Part shown: positions 16,301 to 40,010 of the stretch, one piece after another
Position numbering within the stretch: position 1 is the first letter of the stretch
Layout of the letters: the number at the start of each line of letters is the position of its first letter
Assembly (NCBI GenBank): GCA_027347985.1
Contig: DAIEQH010000001.1
Location: forward strand, 1-56,176
DNA: 56,176 nt
Reading direction: 5' to 3'
Origin: Candidatus Nomurabacteria bacterium
Lineage (GTDB): Bacteria; Patescibacteriota; Minisyncoccia; Phycocordibacterales; UBA9973
Notes under the pieces: generated by a model
What the model saw: the letters and a program-made list of their open reading frames with translations, nothing else
What the model was told of the DNA's origin: nothing
The model's database searches: none
Position numbers and translations under genes: made by a program

Positions 16301-16395
16301 TAGGCACTAGGCTTTAGGCACTAGGCGCTAGCTTTTTAAAAAGTAAATAAAAAAATAATTAGCTAGTTGCCTAAAGCCTAACGCCTAGAGCCTAG
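16301..16395. repeat. Inverted arrays of TAGGCNN heptamers (site 1)
   Basis: The left arm is taggcac-taggctt-taggcac-taggcgc-tagc. The right arm is ttgccta-aagccta-acgccta-gagccta-g. A 28-nt A/T spacer separates them. The right arm overlaps the last codons and stop of map. Confidence 0.85.
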
Positions 16396-18936: not shown

Positions 18937-18960
18937 TTTATTAATTTAATCTAATTTTTT

Positions 18961-18995
18961 ACTAGAGCCTAGTGCCTAAAGCCTAATGCCTAGTC
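18961..18995. repeat. NNGCCTA heptamer array (site 2, single arm)
   Basis: agagcct-agtgcct-aaagcct-aatgcct-ag, abutting and overlapping the dnaJ stop codon. Confidence 0.8.
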
Positions 18996-19882: not shown

Positions 19883-19895
19883 AAGGTTATTATAC

Positions 19896-19974
19896 AGGCT
19901 TTAGGCTTTAGGCGCTAGGCTCTAGCTTTTAATTAATCAAGCTAATGCCTAAGGCCTAGTTGCCTAGGGCCTAG
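19896..19974. repeat. Inverted arrays of TAGGCNN heptamers (site 3)
   Basis: The left arm is aggctt-taggctt-taggcgc-taggctc-tagc. A 14-nt A/T spacer follows. The right arm is gcta-atgccta-aggccta-gttgccta-gggccta-g. Confidence 0.85.
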
Positions 19975-19978
19975 TTAT

Positions 19979-21469: not shown

Positions 21470-21505
21470 ATATATTTATTTTACTACAAAATTGGCTTAA
21501 ATTCC

Positions 21506-21546
21506 ACACCTCACCCCAGCCCCTCTCCTTAGTAAAGGCGAGGGGT
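21506..21546. repeat. GC-rich palindromic mini-element, intergenic copy
   Basis: cacctcaccccagcccctctccttagtaaaggcgagggg. It belongs to the same family as 30903-30935 and, in reverse orientation, 56061-56096. Confidence 0.7.
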
Positions 21547-21548
21547 TT

Positions 21549-23234: not shown

Positions 23235-23277
23235 AATTCTTCATACCTACATACTCCAGTTTGTAAGGATGTTATTT

Positions 23278-25029
23278 TTAGTATACCTCTTTGTTGTAAC
23301 ATTTCTCGCAATAAACTATTTCCGGTCTGTCGGGAGCATAGGCTGTCTCAAATTCATTCATACATTTTCCTGAATGCTCGTGATTCTTTTTTTCGCACAT
23401 ACAAGTCCTGTGCCAAAGCTTCATCGGATTTCTTTTTCTCAATCTTTCTTCGTGTCGACAGATAAAACAAAGCCGTGGTAAAGGCACTCCTAGTTGACGA
23501 TATAAACTCAATTCATCTTTTGTTATTTTATATGCACCCAAGCAACGATCTATACATTTCCCTTCATGTTCGCAACCAATGATTTCATTGGTAATTGATT
23601 CTGGAATATCTTCTAAGCTATCCATTATATCTTTAGCTTTCATTGTCGTGACATATTCACTTATTTTTCTGTCTCTCCATTTATATCCCCTTTTTATTGC
23701 TTCTTCTTTAGTTAAAGGAAAATAATCTTGGGCCACTGTTTCATTGTAAGTAAAAGTTGAAAATTCCGCAGGGAAAAACTCTCCATACTTATAGACAATT
23801 CCCCTCTTGTCAACATAAGGAACATCGTCCATCTGCTTTTTTATTTTAGGAATGAGAGCTTCATATTCTTCTTTAGTGTACTGTTTGTTTAAAATACAAT
23901 ATTTTTTACTTCGAAGTCCGATGCAACCAAATAAATTGTCACAACCATGGCAATTGAAAGCATATTCAATATTATTAGAACTATAAACCACACTAGTGAA
24001 AAGATTACGGAAATTTCCTATGCCAGTGTTAAATGCTTCATATATCATTTCGCCTTCCCCTATCCCCGGTCCTGAGTCATAAACATCTTTTGCATAAAGA
24101 GCAACCCAGTGTATATATTTCGAATCTTCAATTCGTGTTCCTGATGCATCAAAACAAAACTTACAATTTTTTACCCCATCTAGATTATCTCCTGTAGAAT
24201 TCACCATTTTAGAATAATTAGCAAAACGATGTATTGATTTAATATAAAGTTCATTAAATTTCTTTTTTAACTCCAAAATGGTTTTATAACTTTTTAAATT
24301 TATTTTTGCTAAGCGACTTAAATATTCATCTCTACTTAGTTGCTCATTCCACATACAATATGATTTATTGCGAAGATTTGTACAACCAAAACAATTTGTA
24401 CAACCATGACAATCGTACAAAAAACATGAATCTACACAACTTTTACAATTAAATGAATATCTAGTTCGATAACAATCAGTGCAAAACAAACAATCATAAC
24501 AAAGTTCACAACGATAACAAACATAAAGATCTCCGCAATCTGTCGTATACGAAATTCTATTAGAATAAAAAGTTCTATCTATTCTCCAAGAACCAGAACA
24601 CATATAACTGTCTTTACTTCCTTCAGCTACATTACAATAATCACTATTGGTGGCTTTTATATTTGAAAGACATTGAATAGGGCTACTATTTCTCAATTCC
24701 TCCCACTGTTTAAAAAATGGTTTAGAAAAATCATATTCTTTACCGAGGGAAATAGGGTCCCATTCATCTCCCCACCAATATTTAGAATCAACTACTTTTA
24801 ATTTTTCATTAGGATGAATAAAAGAAATCAACATTTCATCATGCCCTGGAGCATCACATTTTCTTCTAAAGAAAGACATTTCGTTTCTCCAACACAAACG
24901 GCGAACGGTCCGACATTCGGGACAGAAAGTCGGCGGAGGAACTTTTATTTTTTCATAGAATAAAAAATCTTCTATTTCTAGAGTGAAGTCTTTCTTGCAG
25001 TTCTGACAATTTTTGACTTCTTTTTTCAT
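23278..25029 (-). CDS. Cys-rich zinc-ribbon-capped protein, paralog 3
   Basis: 583 aa. Same N-terminal ribbon, but the second (x17) ribbon has lost its cysteines. Two LRxKxYC..N.Q units. C-terminal C-x17-CEKC. Confidence 0.7.
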   Translation of the reverse strand: MKKEVKNCQNCKKDFTLEIEDFLFYEKIKVPPPTFCPECRTVRRLCWRNEMSFFRRKCDAPGHDEMLISFIHPNEKLKVVDSKYWWGDEWDPISLGKEYDFSKPFFKQWEELRNSSPIQCLSNIKATNSDYCNVAEGSKDSYMCSGSWRIDRTFYSNRISYTTDCGDLYVCYRCELCYDCLFCTDCYRTRYSFNCKSCVDSCFLYDCHGCTNCFGCTNLRNKSYCMWNEQLSRDEYLSRLAKINLKSYKTILELKKKFNELYIKSIHRFANYSKMVNSTGDNLDGVKNCKFCFDASGTRIEDSKYIHWVALYAKDVYDSGPGIGEGEMIYEAFNTGIGNFRNLFTSVVYSSNNIEYAFNCHGCDNLFGCIGLRSKKYCILNKQYTKEEYEALIPKIKKQMDDVPYVDKRGIVYKYGEFFPAEFSTFTYNETVAQDYFPLTKEEAIKRGYKWRDRKISEYVTTMKAKDIMDSLEDIPESITNEIIGCEHEGKCIDRCLGAYKITKDELSLYRQLGVPLPRLCFICRHEERLRKRNPMKLWHRTCMCEKKNHEHSGKCMNEFETAYAPDRPEIVYCEKCYNKEVY

Positions 25030-25045: not shown

Positions 25046-27130
25046 TTATTCCAAAATTTTTCTTAAAACATCTTCTGGAACTTCTTTAGAATTTATTTTA
25101 GGAGGTGTAGGTATAGCAATTTCCTCTTTCTTTTCTTCCACTTTTGGAACTTCTTCTGTTTTTATATTAGTAGATTGAATAAAATTCTTTAACTTATCCA
25201 TGTCTTCCTTACTTGCAGATCTATCTTTTAAGGTATTATTGGAAACCGGTTTATTATTCTTTAATTCATCTAGTGAAATGGAAGGTTCTGGTATTTTTTC
25301 AACTTTTTTTATTTCTGGTTCTATTTTTTTCTCTTCTTTTTTATTGTCTAAAATTTTATTTTCATTGAGTGTCTTATTTAAAATTTCTCTCAATGCTAGA
25401 TTTTCTTTTGGTTTTTCTTTAACAAAAACTTTCTTAATTGCTGAAAACATTTTTGGACGTGCTGAAGCTGTCGTAGATATGGTAGAAGTTTCTTTAGTTG
25501 GAATTTTTTTCTGATATTCTTGTGTTAAAGGTTTATCTACTCTTTCTGGATATCTTTCATCTTCCCCGTTTTTATCTTTTGATAAGAATTCAATACCCAA
25601 ATCAGACAATGGTTTATAAAATTTACTTTCATCTTGTTTAATCTGTTTAATAGAACCGGCAAGTGGCTTTAATTCCCCAGATTTTATTTTAGCAATACAA
25701 TCTTTACAATATACTGCCCTGCCTGCTTCTGGTTTGAAAGGCACCATTGTTTCTTTCTTACAGATAGAACATACAGCTGGAAACTTCTCTACTCCGCCTA
25801 TCGCATTGTCGTCACCGACAGACATACCACTCCAATCATTTATTTCTCTTTCTACCACTTCTCTTGGACGACAATAGAGCTCGCGGGAAGTTTTAATAAC
25901 TTCGTCTTCAACTTCTTTATTTCCAGATTTAACCATAGGTGGTAAGGTTTTTGCAGAAAATGGGCGTGAGGTTATGCCATCTATCATCAGCTTTAAATAA
26001 ATTTTGAAGTTTGGTAAATTCACAATATCTTGAGGCACAAATTCTGGTTCAAATTCTTTTTCTAAAAATTCTGCATCATCTGCACCCACTCGGAAAACTA
26101 TCATCGTACCAACGTTACCGAAAATGGAATCTCTGACGCTAGAATTTTTCTCCGATATGAGCTGAGCGGTATATTGATGAGCCACCGTCAGATTCAATCT
26201 ATATTTTCTAGCCTCAGACAAAATACTAGCGAAAGCATCCGTCACGAAATTTTGGAATTCGTCTACGTAAAGATAGAAATCTTTTCTTTCATCTTCTGGG
26301 ATACGTACACGTTCCATGGCAGCAAGCTGAATCTTAGTGATGATCATTCCTCCTAGAAGCGAAGAGTTATCCTCACCGATGCGTCCTTTAGAAACATTCA
26401 CCAAAAAAATTTTTCCTTCATTCATTATGTCAAAAATATTTATTGTGCTTTTTGATTGACCGACAATATTTCTGATGATGGATGTGGAAAGAAATTGCCC
26501 GACTTTATTTTGGATAGGAGCAATAGCTTCATTTCTAAATTTATCCTGCCAAGCTTCATACTCGTGAACCCAGAAAGCTTTTATAACAGGGTCTTTTAAA
26601 TTTGAAATTATTTTCTGACGGTAATCTTTGTCCACCAACATTCGGGGTATGCCTAAAAGCGTCGAACCCGGAGTATCAAGCAATGCCAAAATCGCATTAT
26701 TTAAAATATATTCCATACGAGCACTCCAAGCATTCGCCCAAATTTTTGTGAAGATGCCCATCAATCCTGAAGCGACTAGATGCTTGTATTTCGGGTCAAT
26801 AAGTTCCAAGACGTTAAAACCGATATGGTGTTCCGTGTCGGCTGGATTGAAATAAATAACATCTTTCATGCGATGTGGCGGAATAGCCGATAAAATAGCT
26901 TCAACATTTTCTCCATGCGGGTCAACCATACAAACACCGTCACCATTTTCAATGTTCTGGATAATCATGTTGAACATTAGGGCAGATTTACCGGTACCAG
27001 ACTTTCCGAGAATATAAACATGCTGGCGTCTATCTTTACGTTTAATGCCAAAAAGCACATTTTTGTCTCTATAAGTAGTGTAACCAATATAGGTGAGTTC
27101 TTTATTTTTAGGTATTTCCTTTAATTCCAT
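25046..27130 (-). CDS. TraD/VirD4-like coupling-protein-type NTPase with a C-terminal CxxC-x17-CxxC zinc ribbon and a Lys/Glu-rich tail (ATPase 3)
   Basis: 694 aa. GKSGTGKS, VDPHGE, FYLYVDEFQN and EARKYRLNLTVAHQY. The ribbon CSIC-KKETMVPFKPEAGRAVY-CKDC is at nt 25697-25771. Its stop is 16 nt from the start of paralog 3. Confidence 0.75.
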   Translation of the reverse strand: MELKEIPKNKELTYIGYTTYRDKNVLFGIKRKDRRQHVYILGKSGTGKSALMFNMIIQNIENGDGVCMVDPHGENVEAILSAIPPHRMKDVIYFNPADTEHHIGFNVLELIDPKYKHLVASGLMGIFTKIWANAWSARMEYILNNAILALLDTPGSTLLGIPRMLVDKDYRQKIISNLKDPVIKAFWVHEYEAWQDKFRNEAIAPIQNKVGQFLSTSIIRNIVGQSKSTINIFDIMNEGKIFLVNVSKGRIGEDNSSLLGGMIITKIQLAAMERVRIPEDERKDFYLYVDEFQNFVTDAFASILSEARKYRLNLTVAHQYTAQLISEKNSSVRDSIFGNVGTMIVFRVGADDAEFLEKEFEPEFVPQDIVNLPNFKIYLKLMIDGITSRPFSAKTLPPMVKSGNKEVEDEVIKTSRELYCRPREVVEREINDWSGMSVGDDNAIGGVEKFPAVCSICKKETMVPFKPEAGRAVYCKDCIAKIKSGELKPLAGSIKQIKQDESKFYKPLSDLGIEFLSKDKNGEDERYPERVDKPLTQEYQKKIPTKETSTISTTASARPKMFSAIKKVFVKEKPKENLALREILNKTLNENKILDNKKEEKKIEPEIKKVEKIPEPSISLDELKNNKPVSNNTLKDRSASKEDMDKLKNFIQSTNIKTEEVPKVEEKKEEIAIPTPPKINSKEVPEDVLRKILE

Positions 27131-27179: not shown

Positions 27180-27836
27180 CTAATTTATTGGGCTAGAAAA
27201 ACACTCAATAGAAAAATACCTTTTATTTTTCAAACACTGAAGTATAACTCCATTATTTTTATTTTCCTTGATTAGTGAATCTAGGTCGTCTTTTCTATAA
27301 TAATCTTTTTGAAGATCATTTGAGTACTTAAGGATTTCTTGTTTGATCTCTATTTCTTTATCTTGTATATCTTCATTTTTTGCATAAGAAAATAGAAAAA
27401 TTCCAGATATTATAAATAAAACTTCTAATAAAATAAAAAATGTTCTCGAGAGTCCTAATTTTTTATTAATTATAAAATCAAATATTGAAACTAAAAAACT
27501 CATAGAACTAAGTAAAATTAAAGTCAGCCCAGTAATAGCATGCCAATCTCTATATGACCTAAAAACTTGAAAATCGATGGAAACAAAAGTAAATAAAGCA
27601 ACAAATATTCCTAATGTTTCAATCACTGATAATTTACTACTTTCTATCTTTTTATCATATTCTAATATTTTTTCATCTATTTTGTCTATTCTACGATTAA
27701 AACCTTCTTCAAAGGACGCTATGTATTTTGTATATCCTTCAATGGTTAAATATTGATGCTGAACAGAAGTATCTTTGGGTACTTCAATTATCTTTGTTTC
27801 TGTCTCCTGAAAATTTTCTTTATTTTCTGATTCCAT
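27180..27836 (-). CDS. Three-TM membrane protein with soluble N- and C-terminal coiled regions (unknown)
   Basis: 218 aa. Hydrophobic segments are LSVIETLGIFVALFTFVSIDF, ITGLTLILLSSMSFLVSIFDFII and FFILLEVLFIISGIFLFSY. Confidence 0.5.
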   Translation of the reverse strand: MESENKENFQETETKIIEVPKDTSVQHQYLTIEGYTKYIASFEEGFNRRIDKIDEKILEYDKKIESSKLSVIETLGIFVALFTFVSIDFQVFRSYRDWHAITGLTLILLSSMSFLVSIFDFIINKKLGLSRTFFILLEVLFIISGIFLFSYAKNEDIQDKEIEIKQEILKYSNDLQKDYYRKDDLDSLIKENKNNGVILQCLKNKRYFSIECFSSPIN

Positions 27837-27841
27837 ATATT

Positions 27842-28474
27842 TTACAAAAGAATTTGTTCTGACTTAGAAATAGCATCTCTAATAAAATTAGTTAAAACCT
27901 TATCTTTAAAAGAATTTTTTGATAAATCTTCTAAAAGAGTATTAATATCTCTCATTATAATAACTCCTTTTTTTTGACTTCCATTTTTTTCATCTTTTAT
28001 AAACCCACTTTCATACATCTGAGAATTATTAACGTTAACTCCAGATAAGTTAATAACCTCATTAAAACGAATTACTATTTGTGTTGGATTGATAGTTGAA
28101 ATCACTTTTTTATCAAAAAGATTTTTTAATTCTTCAATGGTAATTTCTTTAAACGTAGTAGTAACAACACCTATTCTCCCAATTTCAACAGAGAGGCCTG
28201 ACAAAACATTAAGTATATTAGGGAAAAATTTTTCAAAGAAACTTGAATCAGTAGAGAAAAAATCAATTCTATTTATTGCAAGATTTATATCTACACTACT
28301 TGATTTAATAATTAACCTTGGAATTTCAGGCGGCATATTAGCAGGAATTCCTAATTGAGTTACTACACCATCTCCAAATTCTTTTTTTATTAAAAGTGAA
28401 GCTTTTTCAAGTTGATCAGAATAATTTGATTTAAAGAAGAGACTTATTTGCAATTTAATAAATTGTTTTGCCAT
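27842..28474 (-). CDS. Hypothetical protein (210 aa, soluble, no family recognised)
   Basis: ORF only. It is tightly packed, with a 1-nt gap to the upstream gene and a 5-nt gap to the downstream gene. Confidence 0.45.
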   Translation of the reverse strand: MAKQFIKLQISLFFKSNYSDQLEKASLLIKKEFGDGVVTQLGIPANMPPEIPRLIIKSSSVDINLAINRIDFFSTDSSFFEKFFPNILNVLSGLSVEIGRIGVVTTTFKEITIEELKNLFDKKVISTINPTQIVIRFNEVINLSGVNVNNSQMYESGFIKDEKNGSQKKGVIIMRDINTLLEDLSKNSFKDKVLTNFIRDAISKSEQILL

Positions 28475-28804: not shown

Positions 28805-30712
28805 CTACACTTTAGGAGCTTCCCCTTCTCCTTTTTCGTTTTCCTTGTATTCTGCATCATGAACTTCGGGATTTTGTTCTTCCGGGGCTTGAGCTGGAGG
28901 AGTTTCAGCGCCAGCTTTATTCATTGCTTCACCGATTTTGGACATCTCATTTGAAAGTTCTTCTGTTGCTTTTTTAATAGCTTCAGAATCTGTTCCATCT
29001 TTTACACTTCTTAAAGCAGTTATTTTTGCATTTACATTATCTTTTACATCTGCAGGGATTTTTGCTTCATTATCTTTCAACGCCTTTTCGGCAGTGTAAA
29101 TAATCATCTCTGCAGTATTTTTTATGTCAACAATTTCTCTTTTCTTTTTATCTTCTTCAGCGTGAAGCTCTGCATCTTGTTGCATTTTTTTAATGTCTTC
29201 TTCCTTAAGTCCAGAACTTGCTTCAATTTTAATTGATTGAGCCTTACCTGAAGCTTTATCTTTTGCAGTCACATTCAATATTCCGTTTACATCAATATCA
29301 AATGTCACTTCTACTTGTGGCATACCACGTGGTGCTGGTGGAATTCCATCTAGAATAAAGCGCCCTAGAGATTTATTGTCAGTAGCCATTGGGCGTTCTC
29401 CTTGAACGATATGAATTTCTACAGAAGTCTGATTATCAGCAGCGGTTGAAAATACTTGAGATTTTGAAGCTGGAATAGTTGTGTTTCTATCAATTAATTT
29501 TGTAGCAACTCCCCCTAATGTTTCAATACCAAGAGAAAGTGGAATAACGTCAAGCAATAGTACATCTCGTACATCTCCTGCAAGCACACCTGCTTGTACG
29601 GCTGCACCGAGAGCTACGACTTCATCCGGATTTATAGACATATTAGGAGTTTTACCAAAAAGATTTTTTACAGCTTCTACTATTGCTGGCATTCTTGTTT
29701 GTCCTCCAACCATTATAATTTCATTTATTTCAGCCATCTTAAATGGTGAAGCATCAAGAGCTCTTTTCGTTATTTCAATTGATCTATCTATATATTCTTT
29801 CGCAATAGACTCAAGAGTGGCTCGAGACATTTTCATAAGCAAATGTTTTGGACCACTGGCGTCAGATGTAATAAATGGAATATTTATTTCTGCTTCTAGT
29901 GTTGTAGAAAGTTCATGCTTAGCTTTTTCAGCTGCTTCTTTTAATCTTTGATGTGCTAATGGGTCCTTCCTCACATCTACACCTGATTCTTTTTTATATT
30001 CTTCAGCAATCCAAGAAATTATTTTTCTATCAATATCTCCTCCACCCATGTGAGAGTCACCATCTGTGGACTTAACTTCTATCACATCATCTCCAATTTC
30101 AAGTACAGAAACATCAAAAGTTCCTCCACCGAAATCATAAACAACTATCTTTTCATTTTTCTTTTTATTAAAACCATATGCAAGGGCCGCAGCTGTCGGT
30201 TCATTTATGATTCTTTTTACATCAAGCCCTGCTATCTGTCCTGCATCCTTTGTTGCCTTTCTTTGAGCATCATTAAAATATGCAGGCACGGTGATGACAG
30301 CTTCGGTAATTTTTTCTCCAAGCTTTGCCTCCACATCCGTTTTTATTTTCTGTAAAATCATTGCAGAAATTTCTTCTGGACGATAAAATTTATCTGACAT
30401 TTTTACTTTTACTCCGCCATTGTCTCCTTGTTCAATTTTAAATGGAGCTGTTGCTTTATCTTTCTGTACTTCTGGATCATCAAATCTGTGACCCATATAT
30501 CTTTTTATTTCAGAAATTGTATTCTCAGGATTTGTGACAGCTTGTCTCTTTGCAAGAAGTCCGACGATACGGTCACCATTCTTTGCTGTCGCAACGACAG
30601 AAGGAGTGGTGCGATTACCCTCCACATTTTCAATAATTTTTGGCACGCCTCCTTCAATGAAAGCAACTGCCGAATTTGTTGTACCTAAATCTATACCTAT
30701 TATTTTTGACAT
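28805..30712 (-). CDS. dnaK: Chaperone DnaK (Hsp70)
   Basis: [19 protein letters not shown], and full-length Hsp70 architecture. Confidence 0.97.
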
Positions 30713-30811: not shown

Positions 30812-31363
30812 ATGTCAAGCAAAATAGAATATTCCAATAAAATACTCAAGATTTTGGCAGAAAAACCAGCTATTCCTGTAGATGAAATAAAGAAAAAAAT
30901 TACCACCCCAGACCCCCTCTTCCACAAGGAGGGGGCATATGCCTTAACTCGCTCAATAAAAAATTTGATTGAGTCTGGATGTATTGAAATGATTCAATCT
31001 GACAATAAGAGCTATTTGAAGTTAACCAAAAAAGGAAAAAATAAATTAAACTCCATCAAACTCGAGGGAGATCAAGCACTCGTGTCTAATACTTGGGACG
31101 GTTTGTGGAGAATAATTATTTTAGATATTCCAGAAAACAGAAAAAACGAACGAGAAAGTTTGCGTTATCTTTTAAAGAAAGCTGATTTCGTTTGTATCAA
31201 AAATACTGTTTGGATATCCCCTTTTCCTTACGAACATCTTTTTACAAATATTAAAAAAGATTTAGGTCTCGGTACCGAGCTCATGATTATCGTCACAGAC
31301 AAAATTGACGAAGAAACAAAAAAATATTTTTTAAATAATGTTTTTAAATCCTCCAGCTTGTAA
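30812..31363 (+). CDS. PaaX-family-like winged-helix regulator
   Basis: N-terminal wHTH-like region plus WDGLWRIIILDIPENRKNERESLRYLLKKADFVCIKNTVWISP (PaaX C-domain pattern). It is divergent from dnaK. The 3' end overlaps the convergent ABC gene by 33 nt. Confidence 0.6.
   Translation: MSSKIEYSNKILKILAEKPAIPVDEIKKKITTPDPLFHKEGAYALTRSIKNLIESGCIEMIQSDNKSYLKLTKKGKNKLNSIKLEGDQALVSNTWDGLWRIIILDIPENRKNERESLRYLLKKADFVCIKNTVWISPFPYEHLFTNIKKDLGLGTELMIIVTDKIDEETKKYFLNNVFKSSSL
30903..30935. repeat. GC-rich palindromic mini-element, in frame inside the PaaX-like ORF
   Basis: ccaccccagaccccctcttccacaaggaggggg, encoding TTPDPLFHKEG. Confidence 0.65.
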
Positions 31364-33112
31364 ATCCCAGAGTTTTTTGTAAACTCCATCTTTTTTATTT
31401 GCGAGCTCCTCATGGTTTCCATCTTCCATAATTTTCCCATTTTTTATAACGATGATTCTATCCATTTGCCTTATAGTAGAAAGTCTGTGTGCAATGACTA
31501 TTGTCGTCTTCCCTTTTATAAGTTTGACGAGAGCATCCTGAATCAATGCTTCAGAGTGAGAATCAAGAGAAGATGTCGCTTCATCTAAAATAAGTATTGG
31601 GGCATTTTTAAGAATCGCCCTAGCGATAGCCACACGCTGTCGTTCACCACCTGAAAGTTTTACTCCTCGCTCCCCTACATATGTCTCATATTTTTCTGGC
31701 AATTGGTCTATAAAGTCATCACAGTGAGCTAAGTGGGATGCTACTAATACTTCTTCGTCTGTAGCATCTCTTCTACCATAACGAATATTCTCCATTAAAG
31801 TACGATGAAAAAGTACAGGATCTTGTGGAACGAAAGCAATTTGTTCTCGAAGATTTTCTTGAGAAATTTTGCTGATATCTATTCCGTCAATCATGATTTT
31901 GCCATCAGTAAGATTAAATAACCTCATAAGCAAGCGTACAAAGGTCGTTTTGCCAGAACCAGAAGGACCAACGATAGCTATTTTCTGTCCTGCAGGTATA
32001 ATTAAAGAAAAATTATCTAATATTCTATTGTTATTGTTTTTATAAATATAAGTCACATTATTAAAAGCGACTTCCCCTTTTATATTTTTGGCAATTTCTG
32101 TCGGTTTATCAATAATTTCATATGGCATATCTAAAATAAGAGCCATCTCTTGAGCATCAGCAAAACTCTCATAAAATGCACGAGTAATTGAACCAAAACT
32201 CCAAAGATTTTCAATAAGACGAATTAAATAACTTTGCAACAATACAATAACAGGTAAAGAAATAAGTCCTAACTTCCAATCAGCGAGAGCAATCCAAAAA
32301 ACAATAAATTCAATGGAAAGAGAATAAAAAGATTCAATGGCATTTAAACCTTCCCATAGATACCAATTAAAGGTCGCTATCTTGTTTTGTTTTTCTGTTG
32401 TATATCTAACACGTTCATCTTCTTCCTTTTGACCAGTAAATAACTGAATTGAAGAATGATTACCTATAGAATCAGATAAAACTCCGGTGGTTTCACTATC
32501 ACTTTCCGCTGAAAGAATATCATATTTAAGTTTATATCTTATATAAATAAAAGCTGTTAATATAAATACAACACAAAATATTCCTAAAATATAAGAGTAT
32601 TTTGGAAGTAAAGTATAAATGGCAATAACTGTACCAACACCACGAACAAGAAGTGGTAAGCCATCAAAAATCATTCTATCAGCTAGTTTTTTAAAGGCTA
32701 TTGCATATTTATTTATTTTTCTCACTAATGATCCACCAAAATTATTTACAAAAAAAGAAAAGGAATGGCCTACCATATATGAAAATGCTTGTTGTCTAAG
32801 ACCTGTCATAACGCTCGATTCAAAATATGCGAGAGAAAATCCTGCAATTCTACGAATAGCCCAACGAAAAAGATTTAATACTAAAATAAAAATAATTATT
32901 GATTTTGCTACTCCCACAACTGTAAAATTGTTTGCGCTTAAAGCATTCCAAAGTTTCAAATATTGAAACGGAATATAAACATCAAGAATCGAAGCCACTA
33001 CCGTGGTAATAACAACAGTAAAAAACGACACTTTAAAATGTTTAATAACTTGCCAAAAATATTTAAGCACCAACATACGGTGCAAATTTGAATAATCTTT
33101 TTCTTTGTCCAT
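31331..33112 (-). CDS. ABC exporter, fused permease/ATPase (MsbA-type half transporter)
   Basis: Six-TM N-terminal domain, Walker A GPSGSGKTT, signature LSGGERQRVAIARA, and Walker B ILILDEATSSLD. Confidence 0.9.
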   Translation of the reverse strand: MDKEKDYSNLHRMLVLKYFWQVIKHFKVSFFTVVITTVVASILDVYIPFQYLKLWNALSANNFTVVGVAKSIIIFILVLNLFRWAIRRIAGFSLAYFESSVMTGLRQQAFSYMVGHSFSFFVNNFGGSLVRKINKYAIAFKKLADRMIFDGLPLLVRGVGTVIAIYTLLPKYSYILGIFCVVFILTAFIYIRYKLKYDILSAESDSETTGVLSDSIGNHSSIQLFTGQKEEDERVRYTTEKQNKIATFNWYLWEGLNAIESFYSLSIEFIVFWIALADWKLGLISLPVIVLLQSYLIRLIENLWSFGSITRAFYESFADAQEMALILDMPYEIIDKPTEIAKNIKGEVAFNNVTYIYKNNNNRILDNFSLIIPAGQKIAIVGPSGSGKTTFVRLLMRLFNLTDGKIMIDGIDISKISQENLREQIAFVPQDPVLFHRTLMENIRYGRRDATDEEVLVASHLAHCDDFIDQLPEKYETYVGERGVKLSGGERQRVAIARAILKNAPILILDEATSSLDSHSEALIQDALVKLIKGKTTIVIAHRLSTIRQMDRIIVIKNGKIMEDGNHEELANKKDGVYKKLWDLQAGGFKNII

Positions 33113-33178
33113 ATAAAACCAAAAAATAAGACATTTCTGCCTTGTTTTTACAATACCATATTTTTCTAAAATTACTAA

Positions 33179-34888
33179 TTAATAGATTTCTTTCTTATAA
33201 CACTCACTACAAAGCACTTTTTTAGGACCACCTTTTTCCTCTCGCAAATAAGTGGTGTTAATCTCTTTCTTACATAGAAAACATTCTCTTTTGTTTAAAA
33301 TCATAGGATTACGAAGCTTTAATCTTCTATTGTGTCGTTCTTCCGGATGAATCGAGGGTAACGGTAAATCAAATCTTCTATAAAAATTTAATTCTTGTTC
33401 TATAATTTTAAAAGGTTTACCGGTAATTTCACATTCGATAACTTCATTTAAAATAGAATCATTTACTTCAGAGATTGTCTTCGGTAAATCTTTACCTTTT
33501 ATTGTAACTTTATAAGAGCCAGGAATATATTCACGCCATAGGTATCCCTTCTCTTCTGCTGTTTTTTTATCTAAAGGAAAATAATCTTGAGCAACAGTTT
33601 CATTGTAAGCAAAAGGAGAAAGCTCGGAAGGAAAAAATTCACCATATTTATATACTCTACCTTTTTTGTCTACATATGGCATATCTAGCATATGCTGTTT
33701 TATTTTAGGAACCAGTTCTTCATATTTTTCTTTCGTATATTGTTTATTTAGAATACAGTATTTTTTCCCATTCATTTCTGTACAACCAAAACAATTCTGA
33801 CAATTATTCATCATAAAACTATAATAAATATCTTGAGAATACCAAATAATTGCACCCAAAAAACATTTACTATTTTCAACCCCAATACTTATACCTTCAT
33901 ATGTTAATTCTGAATTACCCCCAGAACCAGGACCGACATCATAAGCGTCACTACACCCCTGACTACCCCAATTTGCATATTTTACATTTTGAAATTCACC
34001 GTCTAAATCAAAAACATTATAACAATTGCGTGAGTTATATACATGGTCGCCGACAACATTTACAGTATTTACGAGTTTCACATCTCTATGAAATGCTTCT
34101 TCCCAAAGTTTTTTAAATTTGTTTCTAGCCTCTTCTATACCATCACGCGTGTTAAAAGCAAACTCATTTTTCTTCTTTAAATATTCCTCTTTTGTATATT
34201 GAATATTTTCAATGCAGTAAGTTTTATTTCTAAGATTAGTACATAAAATACAGTTAGAACAATTTCGGCAATCATATAAAAAATAAGAATCTAGGCAAGA
34301 TTCACTTTCTAGTGAAAAAAATAATCTACTGGAGTCTCGGCAATATACATTTTCATATCCGAACTCCAAATCATAACAAATATAAGAATCCTGAATAAAT
34401 TTACATCTAGATGCTCTATTGCAATATACGGAATCTTCACAATTCCAAGCTGCAGTAACTAAATAGCAGTTTTTCATTTCAACTGTTACATTACAAAATC
34501 TAGAATTTACCGACTTTGAATCAGATAAGGCAAGATGTGGCACTTCTTCCATAAGTTCAGCAAATTGTTTTAAAAATGGTTTAGAAAAATCATATTCTCT
34601 TCCATAAGAAGATGAATCCCATTTATCACTCCACCACATTTCTTTATCATAAGTTTTTACTCTAGCATCAGGATGAAAAACTGAGATAATTAAATCTTTT
34701 TTTCTCTCTTCTGCGTCTTGTCTACGAAACAACGAATGTTCATTTCGCCAAACGAGACGACGAGTTAGCCGACACTCTGGACACCAAGTAGGTGGAGGAA
34801 CTTTTATCTTTTCATAAAAATTAAAATCTTCCAACTCTATGGTAAAGTCTTTTTTGCAGTTCTGGCATTGTTTGATTTCTGATTTCAT
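33179..34888 (-). CDS. Cys-rich zinc-ribbon-capped protein, paralog 4
   Basis: 569 aa. CQNCKKDFTIE..FYEKIKVPPPTWCPECR. The x17 ribbon is degenerate. Two YCI.N.QYTKE.Y units. C-terminal CFLC-x20-CSEC. Confidence 0.7.
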   Translation of the reverse strand: MKSEIKQCQNCKKDFTIELEDFNFYEKIKVPPPTWCPECRLTRRLVWRNEHSLFRRQDAEERKKDLIISVFHPDARVKTYDKEMWWSDKWDSSSYGREYDFSKPFLKQFAELMEEVPHLALSDSKSVNSRFCNVTVEMKNCYLVTAAWNCEDSVYCNRASRCKFIQDSYICYDLEFGYENVYCRDSSRLFFSLESESCLDSYFLYDCRNCSNCILCTNLRNKTYCIENIQYTKEEYLKKKNEFAFNTRDGIEEARNKFKKLWEEAFHRDVKLVNTVNVVGDHVYNSRNCYNVFDLDGEFQNVKYANWGSQGCSDAYDVGPGSGGNSELTYEGISIGVENSKCFLGAIIWYSQDIYYSFMMNNCQNCFGCTEMNGKKYCILNKQYTKEKYEELVPKIKQHMLDMPYVDKKGRVYKYGEFFPSELSPFAYNETVAQDYFPLDKKTAEEKGYLWREYIPGSYKVTIKGKDLPKTISEVNDSILNEVIECEITGKPFKIIEQELNFYRRFDLPLPSIHPEERHNRRLKLRNPMILNKRECFLCKKEINTTYLREEKGGPKKVLCSECYKKEIY

Positions 34889-35001
34889 TTTATTTAAAAT
34901 TCCTCAACCAAAAAATTTTAACTCTAAATTTAATTGTCTGCCAAGCCATAGGCATGACATATCTGATATATTTTATTTTTGTTTTTATTCTTTCCATTTT
35001 A

Positions 35002-36780
35002 TTATATAAATTCTGCTTGATAACATTTCTCACAATATACTATCTCTTTTCTTTCAGGACTTATGGCTGTTTCAAATTCATTTTGACAAGGACTATTTCC
35101 GTGTATATGTTTTATGGTATTTTTATATACACCATCTTTTGATTCTACACCACTACACATACATTTTCTATGCCAAAGTTTTGGTGGATTTTTCTTTTTA
35201 ATTCGTTCACCATAACGACAATTTGGACATAAGTGAGGTAAAGCTATATTCGCCGAACGAAGAAACTGTAATTCATCAGGTAAAATGCGAAACACTTCAG
35301 TACATTCTTGTTTGCAATCTTCGTCTTTATGTTCACAAGAAATAACTTCATTTAATATAGAATCGTCTACTTCTTTTATATGATTTGGTAAATTTTCTGC
35401 TTTTATTGTTATTTGATAATTTTTTTCTTTCTTATCATACCATTTAAATCCTTTTTCCAATGCTTCCTCTTTACTTAATGGAAAATATTTATGTGCCCAA
35501 GTTTCATTATAGGCCCATAGAGAAAATTCACTTGGAAAATATTCACCATATTTGTATATTCTTCCTTTACTATCTATATAGGGCATTTCATTCATATGTT
35601 TAATAATTTTTGGTATTAGTTCTTCGTATTCAACTTTCCCGTATTGTTTATTTAAAATACAATATTTTTTATTTTTTAACTTTGTACAACCAAAACAATA
35701 AGAACAATTGTACATTTTTTCTGTATATGTTAAATCTCTAGAATCATAAGGAGCTCTACCAAAAAAACATCTTTGAGAGTGGAGGCCTCCAGAATTCTCA
35801 TAATAGAGTTCGGAACTACCGCCACCCAAAATAACATCATAACTATCTTTCAACAAAAGGCCACTAAGAAAAACATATTTACAATTTTCTATACCAAGAA
35901 GCGTAGAAAAACAAGTCTGACAATTTTTCGTTTGTTTTATATCATCCCCAGTAACATTTTTAGAGTTTATAATAATGGCAAAGCGTCTTGGAGTTTTGTC
36001 ATAGAGTTCTAAGAATTTTTTTTGTGCCTCCTGAATAGTCTTATAACTTCCTAAATCCCATTTCATCATTTCTTTCTCATACTCTTCTTTTGTGTATTGT
36101 TTATTAAAAATACAATATTTTTGATTTCTCAAATTAACACAACCAAAACAATTTGTGCATCCTATACAATTAAAAAGGAAAGAAGAATCGAGACATTCAT
36201 TTGAAAAATAGGTAAATTTCGTATTAAAAACTCCATTTGAATATATAGTTTCGTAAGTATGATCAGCATTTACAATTACATCGGAATCTAATAAATCTCT
36301 AGAAAATATTGGATTACCACAATAATAACAATTTATGCTTTGAAAAGATCCGAAAGTAAGCCTACAATTTTTACTACGTATAGTGGTATCACAATAATCG
36401 CAATCAGTACAATTTCTATTATCCGTAGCTTGGTAAGGTACTTCGTTTTGTAAATTCAAAAATTGTTCAAAAAATGGTTTTGAAAAATCATAGTCTCGTC
36501 CATAATCCAATTGATTCCAACTGTCTCCCCACCAGCAACTGTTACAATAGACAATATAAGAAGTATCAGGACGATATAAACTTACAATTTCTTTACCACA
36601 CTTATCACAACTATCTTTATATAAAAATCTATCTCCAATAAAAGTAAGTCGACGAATAAGTCTGCATTCCGGACACCAGGTCGGCGGAGGAACCTTAATT
36701 TTCTCATAGAAATTAAAGTCTTCGGGCTCAATCGTGAAGTCTTGTTTACAGTTTTGGCATTGTCGTGTTTCGTTTTTCAT
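35002..36780 (-). CDS. Cys-rich zinc-ribbon-capped protein, paralog 5
   Basis: 592 aa. CQNCKQDFTIE..PPPTWCPECR, CDKC-x17-CNSC, two YCI(F/L)NKQY units, and C-terminal C-x17-CEKC. Confidence 0.7.
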   Translation of the reverse strand: MKNETRQCQNCKQDFTIEPEDFNFYEKIKVPPPTWCPECRLIRRLTFIGDRFLYKDSCDKCGKEIVSLYRPDTSYIVYCNSCWWGDSWNQLDYGRDYDFSKPFFEQFLNLQNEVPYQATDNRNCTDCDYCDTTIRSKNCRLTFGSFQSINCYYCGNPIFSRDLLDSDVIVNADHTYETIYSNGVFNTKFTYFSNECLDSSFLFNCIGCTNCFGCVNLRNQKYCIFNKQYTKEEYEKEMMKWDLGSYKTIQEAQKKFLELYDKTPRRFAIIINSKNVTGDDIKQTKNCQTCFSTLLGIENCKYVFLSGLLLKDSYDVILGGGSSELYYENSGGLHSQRCFFGRAPYDSRDLTYTEKMYNCSYCFGCTKLKNKKYCILNKQYGKVEYEELIPKIIKHMNEMPYIDSKGRIYKYGEYFPSEFSLWAYNETWAHKYFPLSKEEALEKGFKWYDKKEKNYQITIKAENLPNHIKEVDDSILNEVISCEHKDEDCKQECTEVFRILPDELQFLRSANIALPHLCPNCRYGERIKKKNPPKLWHRKCMCSGVESKDGVYKNTIKHIHGNSPCQNEFETAISPERKEIVYCEKCYQAEFI

Positions 36781-36821
36781 GTTCTAATGCTTATTTTTGT
36801 CAAAGCCGAGCTTTGACATTT

Positions 36822-38492
36822 TTAGTTGATATTTTGCTTATAACACTCTTCACAAGCTATTTTTTGATATCCCCACTCTGGTAAATAATACGCTTCTATC
36901 TCCTTTTTACAATAAATACATTTATATGCATATGCTTGCAATACTGTTAAATCTTTCAAACTATTTTTTATTCTGACATCAAAATGCAACCTTGGGAGTG
37001 GAATATTATTTTCTTTATAAAAAATAAGTTCATTTTTTGCAATGTTAAAACGCCAGCCAGTTTCTGGGCAAATAAGCGCTTGAGTGATTATTGTATCCGA
37101 TACGTCTTTGATATCATCTGGCAATTCACTCGTTTGCATACCTTCTAAATTTTCTTCAACAATATCTTCCCAATAACCACCGAGTTTTAAGATATCTTCT
37201 TTTCTTGTCCTTGGGAAATAAGTAAAGCTGGTAGAAAAATTAAAAGGCCCAGCACTCATAGAATAAGGCAAAAACTTACCATATTCTCCTCTTTTTCTCA
37301 TGTCTTCAATAATCTTTGTCTTGAGCTTGTCGAAAGATTCTTTGGTGTATTGCTTATTTAAAATACAATATTTTTTCTTTTTTAAACCAACACAACCGAA
37401 ACAATATTCACACTCAATACATAAATCTATATATTCAGAATATCTTGAAGAAGACCAAACCGAATACTTAAGAGAAAAAGCATTTACACAGGCAGCACAA
37501 TTGCCAGATAATTCCATATACCAACAACCATTCGTATCAATGTTAGATTTTTCTTTTATTCCTCTAATACAATTAAAACAATCCTCACTTTCATTTATAG
37601 TATAACAACTATGACAATTCTTACAGTCTAACAAATAATCTCCAGTCGAATCATATATTCTAAAATTAAAGTTTGGTCTATGTATTACTTCTTTTTTTAC
37701 AATCTCTTCAAAGTGCTTCTTGTGATTTTGTATAGATTCATAAGAACCAAGCTTAAACGATTTTAATTTTTCTAAATACTCTTCCCTTTCATACTGAACA
37801 TTCTCTATACAATAGGATTTACCCCTTAAATTCCAACACATAAAACAATTCTGGCAGTTACGACAATCATAAAGAAAATATGAATCTACGCAATCTCGAG
37901 AGTGTTTGGAGTAAAATAGTTTGTAAGAATGATGACAGTCGCCAATTTCATAACATTTTTCTGAAGTAAAGCTGATAACTGCTTCGATAGAATTTTTAAC
38001 TTTCAAATCTCTATAACAATAATATAGGTCTTCACATTCTTCCATTGAGCGTGCTAAATAACAATTTTTAGAATTCCAGACATCATCACACCATTCGCAA
38101 TTTGTATTCTTTATACCATTCTGGTGCGGATGGGGGACTTTTTCTTGAAGCTCTTGAAGTTGTTCAAAAAACGACTTATTTTCATCATAATCTTGACCAT
38201 AATCCATCGCATCCCATTTATCGCTATACCATTCCGTGGAAGTATAAATCGGATAGCGATTTTTCTCTGGCAAAACTGTGATTAAACTTTCTCCCGAAAG
38301 GTCTGATTTACCTTTTCGAAATTTTCCAAACATCCAGAAAGATAAATGTATTTTTACACGACAAAAGAAACATATTACAGGTAATTCTATACCGACTTTT
38401 TCATACAAAGAAAGTTCCCCCTCTGTTATTTCAAAGGAATTATTACAGTGCTCACAAGTTTTACTTTGCTGTTTCATTGTACTCAAAAACAT
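36822..38492 (-). CDS. Cys-rich zinc-ribbon-capped protein, paralog 6 (most divergent)
   Basis: 556 aa. CEHCNNSFEITEGELSLYEK..CFFCR, two YCI(E/L)N.QY units, and C-terminal CIYC-x18-CEEC. An alternative start is M6 at 38477. With either start, the 5' end overlaps the grpE 3' end. Confidence 0.65.
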   Translation of the reverse strand: MFLSTMKQQSKTCEHCNNSFEITEGELSLYEKVGIELPVICFFCRVKIHLSFWMFGKFRKGKSDLSGESLITVLPEKNRYPIYTSTEWYSDKWDAMDYGQDYDENKSFFEQLQELQEKVPHPHQNGIKNTNCEWCDDVWNSKNCYLARSMEECEDLYYCYRDLKVKNSIEAVISFTSEKCYEIGDCHHSYKLFYSKHSRDCVDSYFLYDCRNCQNCFMCWNLRGKSYCIENVQYEREEYLEKLKSFKLGSYESIQNHKKHFEEIVKKEVIHRPNFNFRIYDSTGDYLLDCKNCHSCYTINESEDCFNCIRGIKEKSNIDTNGCWYMELSGNCAACVNAFSLKYSVWSSSRYSEYIDLCIECEYCFGCVGLKKKKYCILNKQYTKESFDKLKTKIIEDMRKRGEYGKFLPYSMSAGPFNFSTSFTYFPRTRKEDILKLGGYWEDIVEENLEGMQTSELPDDIKDVSDTIITQALICPETGWRFNIAKNELIFYKENNIPLPRLHFDVRIKNSLKDLTVLQAYAYKCIYCKKEIEAYYLPEWGYQKIACEECYKQNIN

Positions 38493-39042
38493 TCACTCGG
38501 GCGGCACGGATGACTCTATCGCCCAACTTATAGCCTTTTTGAATAACTTCAGATACTTTATGATTATCTTCTTTTTTGTCAGTTTGCGTCATGTCTATGG
38601 ATTGATGAATGTTCGGATCAAAAACTTCCCCCACCTCCCCTATTTCCTTTACTCCATATTCTTCAAAAATCGTATTGAGTTGAGCATAGATATACTCTAC
38701 ACCCTTGCGCCAATTTTCATCTACCTTTTCCCAAGATTCTTTATTGGCAAAAGCCATATTGAAACTATCAAGTACAGTTAAAAATCTAGTGAGAATACGC
38801 TCACGCATAACTTCTGAAAAATTAGTCCTTCTATCATCCTCTTGTTTTTTATAATTAGCGAAATCTGCTCGCTCTTTTTGCCAACCCGTCAAATATTCTT
38901 CCTTTTCCATTTTGCATGCCTTCAAATCGGCTCTTAATTTTTTGAGAGTCTTTTTAAAGTCTTCTTCACCATCCTCATTAAATTCAAATTCTAAAACTTC
39001 TGACTCAGGCTCAGATTCTTTTTTTACTTCATCATCTTGCAT
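38461..39042 (-). CDS. grpE: Nucleotide exchange factor GrpE
   Basis: Coiled N-terminal region, then FDPNIHQSI and VIQKGYKLGDRVIRAARVNV. Confidence 0.9.
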   Translation of the reverse strand: MQDDEVKKESEPESEVLEFEFNEDGEEDFKKTLKKLRADLKACKMEKEEYLTGWQKERADFANYKKQEDDRRTNFSEVMRERILTRFLTVLDSFNMAFANKESWEKVDENWRKGVEYIYAQLNTIFEEYGVKEIGEVGEVFDPNIHQSIDMTQTDKKEDNHKVSEVIQKGYKLGDRVIRAARVNVFEYNETAK

Positions 39043-39067
39043 AGTTTTATATTAACATAAAACAAAT

Positions 39068-39177
39068 AAAAACCAAGAACAAAATTTTTGTCGGTACGGA
39101 TTTTTTGAAGCTTAAAAAATCCTGAAATTGGCTCGCCGTCGCTCGCCAAACCCCTTAAAAACTTTTTCTTGGTTTTT
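39068..39177. repeat. About 110-nt MITE-like intergenic element, copy B (inverted relative to copy A)
   Basis: Terminal inverted repeats aaaaaccaagaa / ttcttggttttt. The core contains gctcgcc-gtc-gctcgcc and the hairpin ggatttttt-gaagctt-aaaaaatcc. Confidence 0.8.
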
Positions 39178-39183
39178 ATTTTT

Positions 39184-39627
39184 CTAACGTTTAGACCATT
39201 GTGGAGCTTTGCGGGCTTTCTTTAGACCAAATTTTCTGCGTTCTTTAGCTCTAGGATCGCGTTTAAGGTACCCTAATGTCTTCATCTTATGTCGTAGTTC
39301 AAGATCAAAAGAAACTAAAGCTCGAGCAAGTCCATGGCGAACAGCCTCAGCTTGAGAATGAACTCCACCACCAGAAACTTTCGCTTCTATTTTCCATTTA
39401 TAGTCTGTCTTTTCTCCACTACCAAGGCCCTTTATTATTGGGTCAGAAACTAAACGACGTTCTTCTTCAGTTTGGAAATATTCTTTCGCTTCTTTTCCGT
39501 TTACAACAAAACTCGTTTTAGCTGCTTGCCAAATACGAACTCTGGCTGTGGAAGTTTTTCTTCTACCTATTGCTTCAATGTATTCCTCTTTTGACTTCTC
39601 TTTTGTTGTTTTCTTTTCTTTATCCAT
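39184..39627 (-). CDS. rpsI: 30S ribosomal protein S9
   Basis: GRRKTSTARV and the C-terminal RKFGLKKARKAPQWSKR. Confidence 0.95.
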   Translation of the reverse strand: MDKEKKTTKEKSKEEYIEAIGRRKTSTARVRIWQAAKTSFVVNGKEAKEYFQTEEERRLVSDPIIKGLGSGEKTDYKWKIEAKVSGGGVHSQAEAVRHGLARALVSFDLELRHKMKTLGYLKRDPRAKERRKFGLKKARKAPQWSKR

Positions 39628-39638
39628 AATTATTAAAA

Positions 39639-40010
39639 TTAATCTACAACTACTAAGTTCTTCATCATTTCTCTTCTTAATTTATTTCCTGGAAGCATGT
39701 GATAAACAGCGAGTTTAACTAATTCTTTCATTCCTTTTTTCTCGGCTGTCTCTGTGCCCTTCAAAATACGAAGGCCGCCTCTGTATCCAGAATATCTAGT
39801 ATGAAAAATCTCATCTAATTTTTTAGTAGTGATTTTAATTTTCGAAGCATTCGTCACTCTTACTTTAAAACCAGAATAAACATTCCTTTCAAATGAAGGA
39901 CTATTTTTACCCATTAAAGAAACAGCCACTTCGCTTGCGACCCTACCTAGAGTTCTACCGCTTGCATCTATTATTTTTTGTTCAGTATTTTTCATATTAT
40001 TTTTATACAA
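39639..40010 (-). CDS. rplM: 50S ribosomal protein L13
   Basis: IDASGRTLGRVASEVAVSLMGK. An alternative start is M6 at 39995. Confidence 0.9.
   Translation of the reverse strand: MYKNNMKNTEQKIIDASGRTLGRVASEVAVSLMGKNSPSFERNVYSGFKVRVTNASKIKITTKKLDEIFHTRYSGYRGGLRILKGTETAEKKGMKELVKLAVYHMLPGNKLRREMMKNLVVVD

Follow-up and report, generated by a model that had tools for sequence, protein, structure and literature searches.

The stretch analysed here, referred to below as the window, comprises 56,176 nucleotides of low-GC (~34%) Patescibacteria DNA from a Candidatus Nomurabacteria bacterium (contig DAIEQH010000001.1). On its minus strand, grpE (38461-39042; 193 aa; Pfam GrpE, E 9.2e-38; 87% identity to the ortholog in G006, the nearest relative) is the first gene of a unit that continues with three tandem genes for cysteine-rich paralogs of one protein family. 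These are P6 (36822-38477; 551 aa when read from the ATG at 38477), which belongs to a grpE-anchored subfamily, P5 (35002-36780; 592 aa), in which all four zinc ribbons are kept, and P4 (33179-34888; 569 aa), which has lost ribbon 2. The trio is intact, all three genes lie on the minus strand, and the head-to-tail order, the gaps of 41 nt (P6 to P5) and 113 nt (P5 to P4) and the start of P6 inside grpE were re-measured exactly as a preliminary description of this DNA had given them. Three further paralogs on the same strand, identified by BLAST and alignment, are P1 (17233-18936), P2 (21549-23234) and P3 (23278-25029). They are interleaved, over positions 17233-25029, with dnaJ (18995-19882, minus strand) and with a gene termed ATPase2 (19979-21469, minus strand), which encodes a VirD4/TraD-like NTPase of the type IV coupling protein (T4CP) kind within the FtsK-HerA superfamily (Pfam T4SS-DNA_transf, TrwB_AAD_bind and DUF87). 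The six paralogs share 31-47% identity and contain 29-42 Cys each. The comparisons below suggest that the conserved partner of this family is the clade of ATPases to which ATPase2 belongs, rather than GrpE or Hsp70.

In the 646-kb assembly from which the window comes, 12 full copies and 8 contig-end fragments of the family make up ~4% of the DNA. All 18 genomes in a first sample of the genus have matches, with 1-26 matches each. The family has been lost from the complete genome G327, which has zero copies, and in G018 (locus L011) a 38-aa relic with two stop codons lies directly behind grpE; both of these genomes keep ATPase2 or the order grpE-PaaX-dnaK. No family member is found in 12 other families of the same order, and in a sample of the phylum the family is present in 17 of 301 genomes (15 of 247 genera), nearly always in multiple copies. 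A contig labelled Nanobdellota archaeon (L110) has GrpE followed by two paralogs, but it is probably a misbinned bacterial contig and was rejected as evidence of an archaeal copy. The locus L034, labelled Burkholderiales, has a genus-typical dnaK-dnaJ part with ATPases and paralogs, and its label is probably a binning error.

Twenty regions were read from 13 distant genomes that bear the family. A VirD4/TraD-like ATPase gene adjoins the array in nine of these regions, and grpE or dnaK in none. Five of the genomes have three to four such ATPases each, and the copy adjoining the array is always the one closest to ATPase2 (50-53% identity); in five complete genomes of the same order without the family, the ATPases are only 42-44% identical to ATPase2. 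When ATPase2 was searched against the 301 genomes, the 15 family-bearing genomes supplied all of the 14 best matches outside the genus (E 5.5e-156 to 1.1e-142). In the fifteenth of these genomes the match is truncated (54% identity), and the next-ranked matches are from genomes without the family. In a tree of the ATPases, ATPase2 and those of all 15 family-bearing genomes form a clade with 100% support, which excludes all 18 of the best matches from non-bearing genomes and all five of the same-order ones. At least 10 of the 15 family-bearing genomes have a gene of this clade within ~1 kb of an array. Thus, the ATPase clade and the Cys-ladder array form a two-part module whose parts are inherited together and which, in one genus, lies within the Hsp70 locus. 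The sequence comparisons indicate that, across the phylum, the conserved partner of the family is this one clade of orphan VirD4/TraD-like ATPases and not GrpE or Hsp70. A survey of Patescibacteria counted 5,713 genes for VirD4-like coupling proteins, only 148 of them near virB4, and named no partner family for the orphan genes (PMC12102498).

Members of the ATPase2 clade elsewhere are ~750 aa long. Over the N-terminal 300 residues, they match both a separate open reading frame (ORF) of the window (52235-53530), which is membrane-anchored, and the front of ATPase1 (13534-16281, minus strand). The window ATPases themselves have no membrane segment. ATPase3 (25046-27130, minus strand) combines T4CP domains with a C-terminal CxxC-x17-CxxC ribbon of the same type as that of the family.

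The association with grpE was surveyed in 30 loci of the genus, 28 of which are informative and two of which stop at a contig edge. The gene after grpE is a family member in 22 of the 28, the order is grpE-PaaX-dnaK in five, and an IS200-like insertion-sequence gene follows in one. On long contigs of the genus the same layout recurs: rpsI, grpE, an array, in some cases an ABC exporter, PaaX on the opposite strand, and dnaK. The slot behind grpE holds two, three or six copies on these contigs. The array slots B and C also recur in the genus, with 0-6 copies, and all three slots fall inside grpE...dnaK...dnaJ.

The stop codon of grpE occupies 38461-38463, so that P6 overlaps it by 17 nt if translation begins at the ATG at 38477, or by 32 nt if it begins at 38492 (36822-38492; 556 aa). 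The overlap put forward in the preliminary description is conserved in related genomes: of 20 junctions measured, 12 have the family start within grpE, at an ATG 17, 20, 23 or 26 nt before the grpE end, and the other eight junctions are gaps of 8-101 nt. The overlapping ATGs are formed by codons that are conserved in GrpE (..V-N-V-F/Y-E-Y-N-E..). Because the distal ATG, which corresponds to 38492 and falls within the V-N-V codons, is missing in three of the 12 overlapping junctions, the proximal start, present in all 12, is the conserved one. The product read from 38477 begins MKQQSKTC and has a Cys at position 8, as do four of the other five paralogs. The ATG at 38477 thus appears to be the likelier start of P6. 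In sum, grpE and P6 have what is expected of a translationally coupled pair, namely a same-strand overlap of stop and start that is kept in relatives, and no separate ribosome-binding site or promoter signal.

Such an arrangement might mean that the paralogs work with Hsp70, as co-factors or obligate clients of GrpE, DnaK and DnaJ, and that the overlap provides stoichiometric functional coupling. The frequency of family members behind grpE in the genus, the conserved overlapping start and the confinement of all three array slots to the Hsp70 genes are in keeping with this idea, and a need for chaperones is plausible in proteins that have 30-40 Cys and several metal sites. Outside the genus, however, none of the 20 regions contains grpE or dnaK, and only one has dnaJ, ~6 kb off. 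Within the genus, the loci in which PaaX and dnaK, or an IS200-like gene, directly follow grpE also speak against it, as do the complete absence of the family from G327 and the fact that orthologous paralogs shift between slots, one of them lying outside the slots altogether. Moreover, no J-domain, GrpE fold or other chaperone-interaction domain was found in the six paralogs with Pfam and NCBIfam models. We consider a direct role with Hsp70 unlikely, and it would be confined to one genus. Of the coupled expression with grpE that the preliminary description had proposed, co-expression is plausible and conserved (22 of 28 loci), whereas the functional tie to Hsp70 is not upheld. The argument from coupling is also weakened in part by the five genus genomes that have grpE-PaaX-dnaK without an intact paralog and by the occurrence of the exact P6-P5-P4 trio only in G006. 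The position behind grpE therefore does not seem to be the defining context of the family; judging from the genomes compared, ATPases and arrays lie in the grpE-dnaK-dnaJ locus only in this genus.

The family is large. With a profile search, at least 7,974 relatives were retrieved; every one bears the name "hypothetical", and nearly all are assigned to Paceibacterota, Nomurabacteria or a similar label. When 1.84 billion representatives (50% identity) were searched exhaustively with HMMER, 5,047 matched, 2,207 of them with E <= 1e-30, and nearly all of the matches listed are 530-600 aa long. Full-text literature searches found no description of this Cys-rich family, and scans of the paralogs with Pfam, NCBIfam, PADLOC and PHROGs gave nothing above cut-off. 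Below cut-off, the Cys-ladder core weakly matches phrog_15341, a phage family of unknown function (E 3.7e-6), and there are weak matches to zf_Tbcl_2. The latter model (PF23477; also TIGR04272) describes a treble-clef finger with CxxC-x17-CxxC spacing, which is the spacing of ribbon 2 in P5, P1 and P2 (E 0.017 and 0.047), and of which ATPase3 has a true copy (Pfam zf_Tbcl_2, E 5.9e-12). In the paralogs, however, the match stays below the curated cut-off (for P5, 15.3 bits against 27 and 13.4 against 36), covers ~30 of 570 residues, and is missing from P4 and P6, which lack the ribbon. Searches of the PDB by sequence gave only matches to LIM-type ribbons with E >= 0.001, and a search for stand-alone relatives of the C-terminal half gave only fragments of the same family.

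Alignments and structure models point to a common build of ~570 aa, with a pair of zinc ribbons at each end, a duplicated Cys/Ser core, and then a well-folded alpha/beta domain. Two internal duplications are detected with hhalign in P5. Core 1 (residues 122-240) aligns with core 2 (271-391) with 99.5% probability (E 2e-22), and the N-terminal double ribbon (9-83) aligns with the C-terminal one (491-587) with 98.2% probability (E 3.5e-14). In core 1, a Cys or Ser occupies every third residue over ~100 residues, with an autocorrelation of 0.36-0.51 at lags 3 to 18 and negative values at other lags. In an alignment of 70 sequences, a CxxCxxCxxC motif is invariant and ~25 Cys positions are at least 80% conserved. 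AlphaFold2 models of P5 (predicted local distance difference test, pLDDT, 79.8; predicted template-modelling score, pTM, 0.84) and P6 (pLDDT 82.1, pTM 0.83) give confident predictions of the ribbons and of the alpha/beta domain, and moderate ones of the cores (pLDDT 60-75). In the P6 model the cores have short strands about every 12 residues, and the core is predicted to be a narrow coil with ~12 residues per turn. Both the Cys/Ser periodicity and the strand spacing resemble the Cys-ladder beta-helix of the beetle antifreeze protein TmAFP from Tenebrio, which has a 12-residue TCTxSxxCxxAx coil. Against this likeness, Foldseek matches the paralogs to no solenoid in the PDB, the cores are modelled at the moderate pLDDT given above, and disulfides are unlikely because the paralogs lack a signal peptide. 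Neither a signal peptide nor a membrane segment is evident in the paralogs, and their N-terminus is itself a ribbon. Foldseek searches with the P5 and P6 models returned nothing with E below 3 from the PDB and only zinc-ribbon domains from viral models.

P6 is the most divergent copy, as the preliminary description had it, with 31-33% identity to the other paralogs compared with 38-47% among the rest. Its first ribbon differs, its CxxC-x17-CxxC ribbon is left without any of the four Cys, and its C-terminal ribbon reads CIYC-x18-CEEC. These traits were described correctly, but P6 is not alone in having lost the x17 ribbon: all four of the Cys are gone from P4 and three from P3, and only the first Cys of this ribbon is common family-wide (83% of the 70 sequences). 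The CxxC of the third ribbon is lost in both P4 and P6. In a tree of 49 paralogs of the genus, with 14 distant paralogs as the root, the copy that directly follows grpE belongs to one clade in seven of eight genomes (seven positional orthologs, 100% support, stem length 0.65). Positional orthologs of P5 are found in G006 and G034, and those of P4 in G006 and L036. There are also orthologs that have changed slots, one of them lying upstream of rpsD, and copies never group by genome. Compared with G006, the ratio of nonsynonymous to synonymous substitution rates (dN/dS) is 0.080 for P6, 0.083 for P4 and 0.133 for P5, similar figures being found for grpE (0.086), rpsD (0.085) and rpoA (0.10); purifying selection on the trio is as strong as on GrpE or RpoA. 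No gene-conversion tracts between paralogs were detected, the best block being 83% identical over 48 nt in the most conserved motif. From the positional orthologs, the dN/dS values and the lack of high-identity DNA tracts between paralogs, it follows that P6, P5 and P4 are old, individually maintained genes. The earlier view that they are not recent duplicates is thus borne out.

These data also bear on the idea that the paralogs are stand-alone proteins for metal (Zn or Fe-S) binding, thiol buffering or storage, and that adjacency to the ATPase reflects shared inheritance instead of function. The number of Cys per protein, together with the invariant CxxCxxCxxC motif and the many conserved Cys positions, would suit such a role. 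So would a Nomurabacteria region (L031:17507-21722) in which genes for thioredoxin and DsbB separate a 666-aa ORF without a Pfam match from a 567-aa ORF of family-like size, the family membership of which is putative. Among storage proteins, however, it is rare for many distinct orthologous paralogs to be retained under strong selection. In addition, several ribbons have lost every Cys in conserved copies that retain the remainder of the protein, and the specific co-occurrence with one ATPase clade would be left unexplained. A storage function is accordingly one that we hold to be improbable.

Promoter-like signals in the unit lie before grpE and P4. An extended -10-like box, TGTTAATAT (39049-39057, minus strand), ends 6 nt before the grpE ATG, and a TGnTAnAAT-like box occurs at exactly this distance in seven of eight genus genomes. 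Terminator-like hairpins that close the ribosomal-protein operon are present in all eight, and the box lies downstream of them. The rpsI-grpE spacer (39043-39183) is strongly structured (-45 kcal/mol, z = -5.6), and no CIRCE-like element was seen in it by eye. The position of the box implies that the grpE transcript would be leaderless or nearly so. Among 41 gene starts in the window, a TAnnnT box ends 6 nt before the start codon in eight, including grpE, dnaJ, ATPase1, P1 and the PaaX-like gene. This is a clear peak, other distances being represented by one to six genes and typically by one to three. Shine-Dalgarno motifs are rare among the same starts, and leaderless transcripts may be common in this genome.

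No promoter-like box or Shine-Dalgarno motif was found before P6, and P5 also lacks the 6-nt box. P6, and probably P5, would be transcribed as part of a leaderless mRNA from the extended -10 promoter of grpE. Because P6 has neither a promoter-like box nor a Shine-Dalgarno motif of its own, its translation would be coupled to that of grpE. The simplest reading of these signals is that P6 would be expressed from a leaderless transcript of grpE, with translational coupling. P4, in contrast, probably has its own promoter, because the P5-P4 spacer (34889-35001) is conserved and contains TTGGCA-N18-TAAAAT (34915-34944, minus strand; consensus match 10/12) followed by GAGGA ahead of the P4 start. Compared with G006, this spacer is 86% identical over 86 nt, whereas synonymous third positions of the flanking genes are 66-72% identical. 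The spacer also carries a ATATCAGATAT palindrome and a hairpin, and in the hairpin one visible change between the two sequences compared keeps pairing (C-G to U-G). No Rfam match was found in 33000-39700.

The preliminary description also drew attention to a palindrome between P6 and P5, TGTCAAAGC-cga-GCTTTGACA (36798-36818), with a 9-bp stem and a 3-nt loop. It is present exactly as described and folds with -11 kcal/mol (z = -4.3). It is not a feature of this locus, however, but a dispersed element of the repetitive extragenic palindromic (REP) type. There are 12 copies in 646 kb (at most two mismatches; four exact), compared with none for a reversed control; 10 of the 12 are intergenic, and the copies on contigs C79 and C80 lie inside long ORFs. 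Two genes resembling those for REP-associated tyrosine transposases (RAYT), C122:18978-19661 and C33:15911-16549, both above the Pfam cut-off for Y1_Tnp, are each flanked by two palindrome copies. Because palindrome pairs flank these two Y1 transposase genes, the element can be assigned to a REP/RAYT system. The GTCAAAG...CTTTGAC units C122:18880-19739 and C33:15141-16567 of this genome (G000) are REPtron-like. As in known REPtrons with IS200-like Y1 transposases, a short dispersed palindrome is found in pairs around Y1_Tnp genes. Differences are that the copy number here is far below that in Pseudomonas or E. coli and that, of the four exact copies, three are situated 19-49 nt ahead of Cys-rich paralogs, including those on contigs C133 and C53 at distances of 19 and ~40-50 nt.

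At the P6/P5 junctions of other genomes, G006 and G034 have unrelated palindromes around the core ACGCYATRGCGT, and in four other genomes there is none and the genes abut. The core belongs to a second palindrome family, TACGCYATRGCGTA, with six copies in G006, three in G000 and one in G034. A role of the first palindrome as a terminator on the coding strand was ruled out, since AAAAAT follows it on the minus strand and a T-run is found on the plus strand only. Kinship to the hairpins of the IS200-like gene of the window (3885-4580) was likewise ruled out, the two being unrelated. The palindrome between P6 and P5 thus appears to be a REP-type mobile element that would have landed between the two genes.

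The presence of REP and IS200-like elements nearby raises the question of whether the ATPase and the array are a conflict module, that is, a phage or plasmid defence system or cargo of a mobile element, with a HerA/FtsK motor and variable effectors or sensors. The patchy distribution of the family (17 of 301 genomes) and its volatile copy number, 0 to 26 within one genus, would fit a defence role. The ATPases match the PADLOC models mad8 and HerA, and the weak resemblance of the core to phrog_15341 has the same tendency. Purifying selection at the strength seen for ribosomal proteins and orthologs that hold their positions do not fit such a role. Moreover, searches of the paralogs, which have no PADLOC match, gave no domain of a nuclease, toxin or other effector, and in the loci read the arrays are not flanked by an integrase or any other mobility gene. 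A conflict module seems to us a doubtful explanation.

The remaining genes of the locus include the ribosomal-protein operon upstream of grpE, with rpsD, rpoA, rplQ, rplM and rpsI, also on the minus strand. Behind P4 lies a gene for a 593-aa ABC exporter (31331-33112, minus strand; Pfam ABC_membrane and ABC_tran). Its counterpart in slot A is present in G006, G034 and L034 and absent from L033, L036, G013, G012 and G007, and because its presence varies within the genus, the exporter was ruled out as a partner of the paralogs. An exporter of the same length is found near a paralog pair in L031. Between the array, or grpE itself, and dnaK (28805-30712, minus strand), a PaaX-like gene with a PaaX_M winged-helix domain (30812-31363, plus strand; Pfam) occurs in this position in every genus genome read. 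In a lineage in which no HrcA/CIRCE signal was seen, the PaaX-like protein is a candidate heat-shock regulator. Two small ORFs (27180-28474, minus strand) lie between dnaK and ATPase3, and map (16385-17155, minus strand) lies between P1 and ATPase1. In five distant genomes, a gene for a TrmB-family regulator of ~251 aa lies in or beside Cys-rich arrays (L037:8613-9380, L038:6992-7858, L039:15634-16398, L040:12030-12800 and L042:4395-5192), and its product may be a dedicated array regulator.

Two secretion systems offer a precedent for a motor gene that adjoins an array of paralogs. Type IV coupling proteins such as VirD4, TrwB and TraD can neighbor paralogous substrate arrays, as in Bartonella, where virD4 is followed by bep genes. 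Likewise, in the locus studied here an FtsK/HerA "coupling" ATPase adjoins tandem paralogs that lack a signal peptide, one motor is combined with many paralogs, and array length varies between relatives. The paralogs also display conserved genomic linkage to a T4CP gene, as would be expected of substrates or adaptors of such proteins. The differences are that the paralogs have no relation in sequence or fold to any known effector, that no VirB4-type channel gene is detected with Pfam models, and that the ATPases lack a membrane segment, their N-terminal module matching the separate membrane-anchored ORF of the window. In type VII secretion, the FtsK-like ATPase EssC/EccC is associated with downstream variable arrays of substrates, which are small helical WXG/LXG proteins. 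Here, too, a motor ATPase of the same superfamily adjoins putative clients that are paralogous and variable in copy number. These proteins, however, have ~570 aa with zinc ribbons and a coil, and no other gene for type VII secretion was seen.

By analogy with these systems, the paralogs are probably clients or adaptors of the ATPase. They could serve as alternative clients of a hexameric motor, either as cargo that is handled or translocated or as adaptors that confer specificity, so that one motor would work with many paralogs. The place behind grpE would give strong expression that may be linked to stress, and might bring in Hsp70 to assist the folding of a protein that contains 30-40 Cys. 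We assign a probability of roughly 0.55 to this explanation as a whole, namely an old family with an ATPase of the ATPase2 clade as its partner, expression driven from grpE, and paralogs that act as clients of the ATPase.

Several observations weigh against it. Adjacency of array and ATPase is not seen in five of the 15 family-bearing genomes, the two being separated by 220 kb in G076 and located on separate contigs in G072, G099, G168 and G195. Strict dependence is spoken against by G327, which keeps ATPase2 (87% identity) without any copy of the family, and by G018, in which the ATPase survives and only the relic of the family is left. The genomes are related, so that counts of co-occurrence overstate independence; the bearing genomes belong to ~10 families of the Genome Taxonomy Database (GTDB). 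A classical type IV secretion route is unsupported because no VirB4-type channel ATPase exceeds the Pfam cut-off in five genus genomes (PF03135 has no match and PF12846 only sub-threshold ones), with the proviso that divergent VirB4 proteins of Patescibacteria may escape these models. Proteins rich in zinc ribbons would be unusual cargo for secretion. Finally, the 17-nt overlap between grpE and P6 exceeds the 1-4 nt typical of coupling by termination and reinitiation.

The tiny genome of this Patescibacteria member still devotes ~4% of its assembled DNA to a single family, one that numbers thousands of members and for which neither an annotation nor a fold relative was found. The locus is also a clean case of an accessory gene whose translational overlap with a core heat-shock gene has become fixed. 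Nearly all of the 5,713 VirD4-like genes of Patescibacteria lie away from secretion systems (PMC12102498), and a specific partner family for one clade of them provides a testable route to their function. As a more tentative proposal, the Cys-ladder proteins might be the missing partners of thousands of these orphan ATPases, whether as cargo or as adaptors for specificity, and parts of an ATP-driven machine for protein handling or export that is wired to the heat-shock genes in this genus. If this is true, orphan VirD4-like ATPases and Cys-ladder proteins would together constitute an undescribed machine that operates without a classical type IV channel.

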